DNA of 40,456 nucleotides, from positions 1 through 40,456 of IMG/VR virus record IMGVR_UViG_2778261534_000007; one strand, 5' to 3'. This document shows, piece by piece, positions 1,690 to 39,298 of this stretch (the first letter of the stretch is position 1; each line of letters opens with the position of its first letter). The stretch is from a virus. Taxonomy: Duplodnaviria; Heunggongvirae; Uroviricota; Caudoviricetes. The position numbers and the translations under genes were made by a program. The notes under the pieces are model-generated. The model worked only from the letters and a program-made list of their open reading frames with translations, had not been told where the DNA came from and searched no databases.

Positions 1690-1704
1690 TGGTGTCCCCT
1701 GCAG
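1690..1704 (-). other. Prophage attachment-site core (attR); 15-bp copy of the 3' end of tRNA-Arg (argW)
   Basis: TGGTGTCCCCTGCAG is the reverse complement of CTGCAGGGGACACCA, the 3' acceptor end of E. coli argW as I recall it. It lies 74 bp beyond the torI stop, where the phage-host junction is expected. Confidence 0.6.
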
Positions 1705-1777
1705 ACATCTACTTGAGGCGGCAGGGGATTGATTGGAATGGTGTTTTTTAGGTGTGAGAAATATTTTACCCGCTATT

Positions 1778-1978
1778 TTACCCATTGGCGCGGCTTAAGA
1801 GCTTATTTTTGAATTCACAATGGTCACGATATAACCATCTTGCTCGCCCGTGGATAACTTTGGCTTTTGGCAGGTCGCCGGACTTAATCCGGTCGTAGAT
1901 GAAGGTTTTACCAAAGCCAGTATCGGCCATGATGAATTTCAAATCAACCAGGGAATCAGGCTGTAGTTCGTGTTGCAT
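1778..1978 (-). CDS. torI: Excisionase / recombination directionality factor, TorI-like (66 aa)
   Basis: 66-aa winged-helix Xis-like protein (FGKTFIYDRIKSGDLPKAKVIHGRARWL); position adjacent to attR as in KplE1, where torI and intS sit at opposite prophage ends. Confidence 0.7.
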   Translation of the reverse strand: MQHELQPDSLVDLKFIMADTGFGKTFIYDRIKSGDLPKAKVIHGRARWLYRDHCEFKNKLLSRANG

Positions 1979-1997
1979 GAGTGCTATCTCCGAATAG

Positions 1998-2013
1998 GGA
2001 ATCGAACCTGCAA
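1998..2013 (-). other. 16-nt tRNA-Arg T-arm-derived segment upstream of torI
   Basis: Minus-strand TTGCAGGTTCGATTCC is an exact 16-nt match to the argW T-stem/loop as I recall it; chance occurrence in 40 kb is roughly 1e-5. Confidence 0.5.
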
Positions 2014-38055: not shown

Positions 38056-39054
38056 TTATATTAAATGTTTTGTTATTTTATTCTTTGATAGTAAATAACA
38101 AATTAAAGCTGAAATTGCGAAATATATTATGGTGAGTACAGGTATCATATACCATGCATTAACAGGACTGTAGCCAAACTTTATCTCTCTGACTAATATA
38201 AAATGTATGAAATAGATACCAAAAGATAGTCCTGAAATTGTCCTTATAAAGGAAAGCACATGATCAGATACACGATCCTTAACTGAAATGCAAAACATGA
38301 ACGTGAAGATAGCACTTGCAAAAACAAATGGAGCAGTATTTTTAAAGAAAAGCTGTTCCGGCCTACCAACCTTGCTGGACCACCATATTGTAGCTAAAAC
38401 AGTAGCCACGCTAAAGAAGACAACAAGCAGGAAATAAATTATCCAACTAATAGTTGAAATTCTGTCTCTATATCTTCTTAGTATAGCGCCAACAAGAATG
38501 TATATGCCATTCTCTGAAATAAAATCCAACTTAAGCCATGTAAGGCTAAACATTGTTCTGTGAATGTACGGAACGAGTGAGTGAACGTAAAACAACATCG
38601 CTATTATCATCAGTATATAATACGATGGCAAATTCTTAAGTGGATTACTTATTATTGGTAAAAACATATACATGCAAATATATGTATACATAAACCATAA
38701 ATGGACCTCTGAATGTTGAAATAATGACGATATTTTAAGTCCGTTATAGTGATTATTATATAAAAAATAAAACAGCCACCAAAACATAAAAGGAATAAAG
38801 AGTTTTCTAACCCCTTTTGCTAAATGATTTGAAGCCTCTATCTCCTTTTTATAATAAAGGTATCCTGTTATTATAAAGAATAACCCAATACATTGTCGTG
38901 TAAATGAACTATACGTTGTTATAGTATTCCATGAGTCGCTGAATGCAAGGAAGTAAGCTCCTGACGCATGTAACATAACCACAAGAAAGATAGCTAAACT
39001 TCTTGCTATATGCACTTCATTTAACTCTATTCTATTTTGTCGAATATCAGACAT
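38056..39054 (-). CDS. Integral-membrane acyltransferase (acyltransferase-3 family; O-antigen acetylase Oac-like), 332 aa
   Basis: About 10 predicted TM helices; N-terminal motif RSLAIFLVVMLHA typical of the acyltransferase-3 family; very AT-rich; located between tailspike and integrase, where seroconversion genes sit in P22-like phages. Confidence 0.75.
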   Translation of the reverse strand: MSDIRQNRIELNEVHIARSLAIFLVVMLHASGAYFLAFSDSWNTITTYSSFTRQCIGLFFIITGYLYYKKEIEASNHLAKGVRKLFIPFMFWWLFYFLYNNHYNGLKISSLFQHSEVHLWFMYTYICMYMFLPIISNPLKNLPSYYILMIIAMLFYVHSLVPYIHRTMFSLTWLKLDFISENGIYILVGAILRRYRDRISTISWIIYFLLVVFFSVATVLATIWWSSKVGRPEQLFFKNTAPFVFASAIFTFMFCISVKDRVSDHVLSFIRTISGLSFGIYFIHFILVREIKFGYSPVNAWYMIPVLTIIYFAISALICYLLSKNKITKHLI

Positions 39055-39298
39055 TACGCACCCACCACAATTTTATTTGTATGATTTATATGCTTTTAAA
39101 TTTAAGATTATTTTGTCCTTTTTCTATCACGTAACCATGAGCGAGATGATACTTAAAAAAACAGTGCTGCGAATTTATTCTATCATCCAAGGCTCCATCG
39201 ATCGATACTTGCGGTAGTTGATGAGGAAAAGCTATGGTACACAAAGCTTTGCACTGGATTGCAAGGTTTTGTTTCTATCAGATAGTGGTTAAGCTGGA

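Follow-up and report, generated by a model that had tools for sequence, protein, structure and literature searches.

A partial copy of the argW T-arm conserved in the leader of the torI excisionase gene of Sf6/HK620-like prophages

A tRNA-like element in the KplE1-type recombination module

The recombination module of prophage KplE1 (CPS-53) and of HK620, Sf6 and Kapi1 has been described as comprising a 16-17 bp core, five sites for the excisionase TorI, arm-type sites for the integrase IntS and one site for the integration host factor IHF (PMC2951348, PMC3509656, PMC8787464). The window analyzed in this work, a stretch of 40,456 nucleotides from a Caudoviricetes record of IMG/VR (IMGVR_UViG_2778261534_000007), carries a module of this kind, with the same core, a TorI that is 100% identical to that of E. 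coli, the same arm-type sites and the same int-side TorI sites. It also shares the unusual xis-attP-int order of these modules, in which torI and intS are located at opposite ends of the prophage. In addition, the leader of torI contains, at positions 1998-2013 of the window on the minus strand, a copy of part of the T-arm of argW, the tRNA-Arg gene that is the target of integration. The papers of Panis, Mejean and Ansaldi and the Kapi1 paper, in the parts that are accessible, make no mention of a T-arm copy upstream of torI, and the leader element is apparently an additional conserved part of the KplE1-type module that this accessible literature does not describe.

Positions 1998-2013 read GGAATCGAACCTGCAA, which is the exact reverse complement of argW nt 46-61, the minus strand being TTGCAGGTTCGATTCC; the argW reference was read from K-12 and from the genome with the closest intS, and both sequences were identical. 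By chance, such a 16-mer is expected about 2e-5 times per 40 kb on both strands; it occurs once in the window, where no second copy was found even with 3 mismatches allowed. The preliminary description had called this segment a T-arm copy, and it was right about the exact match, but the copied part, which comprises the 5' strand of the T-stem, the T-loop and two further nucleotides, is not a complete T-arm. The 16-mer is the E. coli form of the element GTTCGATT(C/T)CC, whose conserved core GTTCGATT(C/T)CC(C) corresponds to the T-loop of the tRNA and its neighboring bases; according to the comparison of torI-family leaders, this core is GTTCGATTCCC in the window and occupies 1997-2007 on the minus strand. 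The element is on the sense strand of torI, about 30 nt ahead of the ATG and 4-7 nt ahead of the Shine-Dalgarno (SD) sequence, which was read as GGAG at 1988-1991 on the minus strand, and the upstream gene's terminator comes directly before it, while the nearby mosaic joint leaves it on the same side as torI. A tRNA or tRNA-like gene was rejected as an explanation because ARAGORN detected no tRNA in the window, the Rfam tRNA model gave no tRNA match in 1500-2200 even at E<=10, and what follows the motif on its 3' side does not resemble a tRNA, as the 20 nt between motif and ATG aligned to the 3' end of argW no better than shuffled sequences did (p 0.1-0.9).

The other argW-derived segment, at 1690-1704, reads TGGTGTCCCCTGCAG and is the exact reverse complement of argW nt 61-75, the tRNA's 3' end (CTGCAGGGGACACCA on the minus strand). 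Because of this match and because homology to Sf6, HK620 and Kapi1 begins exactly at 1690, this segment is the ordinary attR core of an argW-integrating prophage of the Sf6/HK620/KplE1 type, and it marks the junction between bacterial and phage DNA. The same sequence also occurs at attL beside intS in relatives, K-12 has the same 15 bp annotated as the pseudogene pawZ, and the placement of the core agrees with the literature (PMC2951348, PMC8787464), where its published sequence is CTGCAGGGGACACCAT (PMC2951348). The two segments are adjacent in the tRNA, with C61 common to both, and in the window they lie on one strand in tRNA order, separated by 293 bp (1705-1997) that contain torI, the gene of a 66-aa excisionase or recombination directionality factor (RDF) at 1778-1978 on the minus strand, which was taken from the open reading frame list and is annotated as TorI in RefSeq. 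This confirms the geometry given in the preliminary description, which had the two segments about 290 bp apart on the same strand with torI between them, and the alignment to argW and to the att regions of relatives that it proposed as a check gave the same answer, since both segments match argW and the T-arm segment is conserved and not a chance match.

Compared with the tRNA 3'-end duplications at prophage ends, such as pawZ, 1690-1704 is just such a displaced 15-bp copy at the junction, and it combines the identity to the tRNA 3' end and the position at the bacterial/phage boundary that define a crossover site. In contrast, the T-arm copy is internal to the phage, 293 bp off the junction, as it is in the Sf6 and HK620 genomes, and it is neither duplicated by integration nor used in the exchange. 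A hybrid junction joining the 5' part of argW via the T-arm to torI was found in 0 of 5426 E. coli genomes, which together with the internal position rules out the T-arm copy as a crossover site. The copy is also outside the 135-bp attR used in vitro, which ends at about 1801 of the window (PMC3509656), and lies about 200 bp further on. Such a 16-nt repeat is easily mistaken for an att site, and the record of phage CUS-3 (CP000711) appears to contain this mistake: exactly this 16-mer is annotated there as both the attL and the attR core (L005, 2693-2708; L006, 1-16). The right end of the UTI89 prophage is 100% identical to CUS-3 over 809 bp, and in UTI89 torI follows 20 nt past the end of the CUS-3 record and is itself followed by dsdC (L121, 2009-2229). 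Because torI and then dsdC follow in this identical end, the annotated CUS-3 core is probably the T-arm repeat, that is, the wrong direct repeat and not the crossover, with torI left out of the record.

Conservation of the leader element and its interpretation

The T-arm copy is present in K-12 KplE1, Sf6 and HK620, and the exact 16-mer was found in 75 of 80 E. coli-type viral contigs of IMG/VR, where the same linker and motif are preceded by at least three different terminator stems. For the wider family, torI homologues were gathered from genomes and viral contigs, and the 60 nt preceding each start codon were searched for GTTCGATTCC, allowing up to one mismatch. The motif was found in 63 of the 84 distinct torI-family leaders, representing 13 of 21 clusters of Xis proteins at 90% identity, when only about 0.13 leaders with the motif were expected by chance, and its position was nearly always -29/-30 from the ATG. 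Carriers were torI-family genes of Escherichia, Salmonella, Citrobacter, Serratia, Pantoea, Erwinia and Edwardsiella, including Salmonella phages g341c and Emek, Serratia fonticola, and Erwinia phages Midgardsormr38 and phiEt88; the motif is kept even where the Xis is only 39-51% identical to TorI, as in g341c and phiEt88 (39% in the latter). In a set of 32 thinned leaders, which is a subset selected for the motif, 8 of the 10 motif positions were invariant, the permitted mismatch was concentrated at a single C/T position, and the flanking columns were 31-88% identical. The SD sequence of torI is also conserved, as GGAG(A/G)T in an alignment of 20 leaders. The distance between motif and ATG varies from 16 to 19 nt, and because the frame is thereby not kept, the motif is not conserved as coding sequence; a hidden coding sequence was likewise rejected since the frame of the motif differs between lineages and a stop codon is present just upstream in E. 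coli.

A search of IMG/VR for the pattern of motif, SD and ATG returned 120 loci, 89 of which were torI-family leaders and nearly all others genuine tRNA genes. The family consensus TTCCAGGTTCGATTCC matches argW at 15/16 positions and the E. coli lineage at 16/16, while in Serratia the match runs on in the 3' direction to ..CCTG. Judging from these alignments, the motif almost certainly derives from the argW T-arm, and it has the appearance of a T-arm copy that used to be longer and has eroded from both sides, with the T-loop core protected. Among the tRNA-Arg(CCU) variants recovered from unlinked contigs, T-stems with GCAGG and with ACAGG both occur. As far as these comparisons indicate, the motif moves together with the int-attP-xis recombination module between phage backbones that are unrelated.

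Some further occurrences of the motif were observed. Phages of the Midgardsormr type carry two tandem copies with a 19-nt period (Midgardsormr38, L010, about 2100-2145; L220, L221 and L223 are listed alongside), and viral contig L217 has the motif twice, with the copies about 13-14 nt apart. On IMG/VR contig L322 (minus strand, about 3438), the near-consensus leader GTTCGATTCCCTAAACCGGAG precedes an endolysin-like open reading frame (ORF) and not an excisionase gene, and a similar motif precedes an ORF of unknown function in L306; both could be recombinant leaders or chance matches. Typical enterobacterial torI modules were also seen on contigs labelled as metagenome-assembled genomes of Actinomycetes or Parachlamydiaceae (L018 and L035; also L038 and L040), labels that are probably due to binning contamination, and weaker matches occurred in Synechococcus records. 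The distant AlpA-type RDFs of Pseudomonas phages were uninformative, since their xis overlaps the upstream gene and their int is convergent.

We consider, with a probability of about 0.55, that 1998-2013 is a selected element of the torI leader with a putative function, and not a remnant of a split attP or a crossover site. Some function of the T-arm copy is suggested because it has been conserved. Nevertheless, several observations weigh against this interpretation. No RNA structure stands out in the leaders, as RNAalifold found 0 consensus pairs and the z-scores of the minimum free energy are near 0 (-0.7 to +1.2). A helix between AUUCCC of the leader and GGAGAU of the SD pairs in 82.5% of cells, which is marginal, with only 25 of 500 shuffles falling short, and the predicted occlusion of the SD is no stronger than with shuffled upstream sequence. 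The element is absent from 8 of the 21 Xis clusters, having been lost by clean short deletions, and is thus dispensable, and the sampling consisted mostly of Enterobacterales prophages. The arm adjacent to the core varies exactly at the T-loop positions, which weakens the idea that IntS reads them. Finally, none of the schemes of aberrant excision or Campbell type that were tried places the T-arm upstream of xis in direct orientation.

Alternative explanations of the T-arm copy

The preliminary description suggested an ancestral attP with a longer tRNA 3' half that was later split by acquisition of torI. Spelled out, this would mean a contiguous argW 3' half of about 31 nt, with a torI cassette entering between nt 61 and 62 and cutting off the T-arm on its upstream side; the unsplit ancestor would then show an uninterrupted CCCCTGCAGGAATCGAACCTGCAA followed by phage DNA, without a torI remnant. 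The two pieces do abut in the tRNA with a one-base overlap and in the same orientation, and the T-arm copy is close to a mosaic boundary, but the arm beside the core keeps its own T-loop-like TT(C/A)GATGT in register, so that the T-loop would be represented twice, and the supposed insert of 293 bp holds a functional P arm, including the IntS arm-type sites of the functional attR. In Dryocola and several viral contigs, the layout of terminator, linker, SD, xis, P arm and core is found without the motif segment, leaving ATTGCCTG joined directly to GAGAT; because these relatives lack only about 22-25 nt between terminator and SD, the motif is an independent leader segment and not the edge of a torI insertion. 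Its presence in tandem copies in some phages likewise speaks against a split. The unsplit arrangement was searched for with a synthetic query of core, T-arm and terminator, which matched only two genomes, F404 and E10, neither of them genuinely unsplit: these sole contiguous cases retain the leader bases GAATAG and are thus secondary deletions. The split by acquisition of torI is not supported by this evidence, and we regard it as very improbable. If the copy is instead a neutral relic, it would be the scar of an old illegitimate recombination with argW that hitch-hikes with torI. This would agree with its dispensability, that is, with its absence from the clusters mentioned above and its loss by short deletions, and with the negative searches for structure, promoter and partner; it would not explain why most motif positions remained fixed while the non-coding neighbors and Xis (down to 39% identity) diverged, or why changes inside the motif fall mostly on a single C/T position, and we consider a relic to be unlikely.

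Other explanations assign the motif to a known type of protein-binding site. The preliminary description had offered, as its second possibility, a site for the integrase or for TorI that overlaps the torI promoter, and for this the indirect evidence is mixed. RDF operators, such as those of TorI on PintS and of P4 Vis, are likewise short cis elements beside a recombination gene, and the motif holds the TorI pentamer GTTCG, so TorI might bind in its own leader and autoregulate its gene as it acts at PintS on attL. The pentamer has the same orientation as in the five mapped TorI sites I1-I5 (PMC2951348), the motif matches site I4 at 9 of 10 positions (GGTTCGCTTC vs GGTTCGATTC), tandem copies about two helical turns apart are found in Midgardsormr-type phages, and one P'-arm site (L233) reads GTTCGATTT. 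However, beyond the presence of a direct pentamer (GTTCG, GATCG or GTCCG), neither the flank signature of TorI sites nor co-variation with the type of RDF site was found, and no promoter is evident. The base after the pentamer is C/T in 39/39 P'-arm sites from nine modules and always A in the leaders, with L233 as the exception; ATTCCC is as invariant as GTTCG in the leader, unlike in the I sites; and in phiEt88, L184 and L187 the P' repeats are (A/G)TTACC, without GTTCG, while the leader motif is unchanged. The motif is therefore probably not a TorI operator, an identity we hold to be distinctly unlikely. An unlikely explanation, too, is a pseudo core-type (B'-like) site at which IntS, either free or while bound at the P-arm sites, would also bind the T-loop mimic and block or tune the read-through into torI, or for which the motif would serve as a decoy. 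In its favor, the motif is the attB sequence that flanks the core on the tRNA side, it is constant, like the target tRNA and the core, while arm-type and RDF-site specificities change, and in F404 and E10 the core has been fused by deletion to a position 6 nt away from the motif, in tRNA register. Against it, TGCAGGGG, the part closest to the exchange region, is missing from the motif, the equivalent T-loop positions in attP are variable with only G(A/G)TGT fixed, the attR substrate used in vitro does not include the motif, and core-type sites by themselves are usually bound weakly, as is the case for lambda Int. The arm-type motif GGGTAAA(A) or TAAA is absent from 1998-2013, the true P-arm sites being at 1764-1784. 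Lastly, the records of Sf6 and HK620 annotate a promoter, "pI, possible integrase expression promoter", whose position in the Sf6 GenBank record corresponds to about 1994-2021 of the window; many copies of the E. coli lineage read TTGC-N5-TTGC, resembling a CII/C1-type activator box, and the torI promoter PtorI is called uncharacterised (PMC2951348). A sigma-70 promoter or CII-type box was nevertheless rejected: no sigma-70-like site was found on either strand of 1600-2500 (1.6 expected in shuffles), and the TTGC spacing, which is N5 and not N6, is wrong and lineage-specific, the window itself having TTAC. The flanking positions that would supply an activator box and the -35 and -10 elements are unconserved in other lineages, where the T-loop core is conserved, and a separate promoter of intS has been mapped in attL (PMC2951348), which makes a promoter role highly improbable.

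Possible mechanism and significance

As a selected leader element, the T-arm copy would influence torI expression in cis by being recognized as a mimic of the T-loop in the target tRNA. Recognition might take place in the mRNA leader, beside the SD, or at the DNA level through a factor that is constant in the family, and candidates are the core-binding/catalytic part of the integrase or a host factor that binds T-loops, whereas TorI is unlikely. Because target tRNA, core and host clade are all constant, one of these two partners would be more plausible than TorI; both the arm-type sites (GGGTAAA vs GGGCATA) and the RDF repeats change across the family. We doubt, on balance, that the partner acts at the RNA level or is a host factor, and no single molecular partner can be assigned with more confidence than that. 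For a role at the RNA level, the distance to the SD is fixed and the one tolerated change, C to T, would keep or improve the pairing with GGAGAU, but neither point is decisive. In the thrS operator, the mRNA leader imitates the anticodon arm of tRNA-Thr. The torI leader likewise has a tRNA-like piece immediately upstream of the SD; in contrast to thrS-type mimicry, only a T-loop with a stem of at most 2-6 bp is present here, and no conserved helix was found. More speculatively still, and with clear doubt, the module might carry a mimic of its own target, in which the argW T-loop copy, 6 nt from the ribosome binding site of torI, would gate excisionase production according to its occupancy by the same factor that recognizes the tRNA gene or the tRNA, be it the core-binding/catalytic domains of the integrase on DNA or a host T-loop enzyme such as TruB or TrmA on mRNA. 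If this were true, recognition of the target site would feed back on the direction of recombination in a way that is new.

A 2013 PNAS study by Menouni and colleagues reportedly found that torI is reached by read-through transcripts that are normally stopped by Rho, which would agree with a leader that has no promoter of its own. Expression of torI is the switch that decides whether a prophage of the KplE1/Sf6/HK620 type stays or leaves, and its control has been described as uncharacterised. The phages that carry the module are widespread and include seroconverting phages of Shigella, E. coli and Salmonella, and a conserved element at the ribosome binding site of torI is a cheap and obvious target for mutagenesis in studies of torI control. 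The element is a small and apparently undescribed part of a known system, and its modest interest lies mainly in its location, since no other control point of these prophages is understood as poorly. Even if the element had no function, the story of a split attP should not be propagated.

Neighboring features and further observations

The phage arm beside the core (1705-1727) consists of a degenerate T-loop-like stretch, AAGTAGATGT on the minus strand, and of GCAGGGG at 1721-1727, and it was compared across 45 thinned attP/attR arms. The family consensus of the stretch is TT(C/A)GATGT, in register with TTCGATTC of the tRNA; the ten bases adjoining TGCAGGGG read (A/T)TT(C/A)GATGT(C/A), where the tRNA has GGTTCGATTCC in the same register, and the mean number of matches to the tRNA in this tract is 5.4/10. 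GATGT is 77-100% conserved in this arm, and TTCGAT is wholly kept in many lineages. CCCCTGC of the core (1696-1702) also has an inverted counterpart, GCAGGGG, which lies 12-24 nt inside the phage arm. The pair was seen in every attP/attR examined, with a spacer of variable length, and it may be part of the core-type sites of the integrase; no discussion of it was found in the accessible part of the literature on KplE1-type modules.

Further into the P arm, two IntS arm-type sites were read from the sequence at 1764-1784, TTTTACCCG and TTTTACCCA (GGGTAAAA on the minus strand), which overlap the stop codon of torI; such sites carry a TAAA motif (PMC2951348). Primer attR-IHF2 (PMC3509656) maps to 1782-1801 of the window, the end of the attR used in vitro. 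On the other side of the leader element, 2014-2046 on the minus strand is made up of the linker TTTTTTATTACCTGA and an intrinsic terminator, which belongs to the upstream gene and was located by a terminator scan, with the stem-loop at 2046-2027. The mosaic boundary with phages of the 933W type (933W/Stx) is at about 2019, where their homology starts, and the K-12 sequence diverges from the window after about 2030. A weak Rfam match at 1928-2055 on the plus strand to the enterobacterial small RNA STnc130 (22.6 bits against a gathering score of 55, E=0.63), which is antisense to the start of torI and ends at the bidirectional terminator, is most likely due to chance.

Variation of the module was observed in several relatives. 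In some argW modules (phiEt88, L235, 2100-2240; L184 and L187), (A/G)TTACC or GTAAC repeats take the place of TorI sites of the GTTCG type between the core and the int promoter, and the arm-type sites of the modules with (A/G)TTACC repeats are GGGCATA instead of GGGTAAA. From their position, the (A/G)TTACC repeats are inferred to be RDF sites, and apparently, as far as these sequences indicate, the RDF and arm specificities were exchanged without a change in the core or in the leader motif of xis. In F404 (L007, about 2506-2536) and E10 (L008, about 2502-2532; L009), the P arm and torI are lost, which leaves a prophage without an excisionase. One end of the deletion is within the att core (TGGTGTCC / TGGTGTCCC) and the other at GAATAG, which immediately precedes the T-arm copy; the resulting pseudo tRNA 3' end is as long as the genuine one. 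In E10, the same site also holds, in tandem, an island with a second, P4-like integrase.

At the beginning of the window is cscB (1-1248), which is followed by the right junction of an Sf6/HK620-like prophage of about 39 kb, and it ends exactly at the start codon of intS, with argW itself just beyond. In the best-matching complete genome (E. coli CAU16175; L003, 978-2999), cscB is interrupted by an IS1 element, and no complete E. coli genome in the collection matched 1250-2450 of the window at better than about 98%. Between the tail end of the phage and intS, a very AT-rich segment (38400-39060) contains a long reading frame on the minus strand. The equivalent place in Sf6 is occupied by the O-antigen acetylase gene oac, and the reading frame in the window is probably a serotype-conversion gene.

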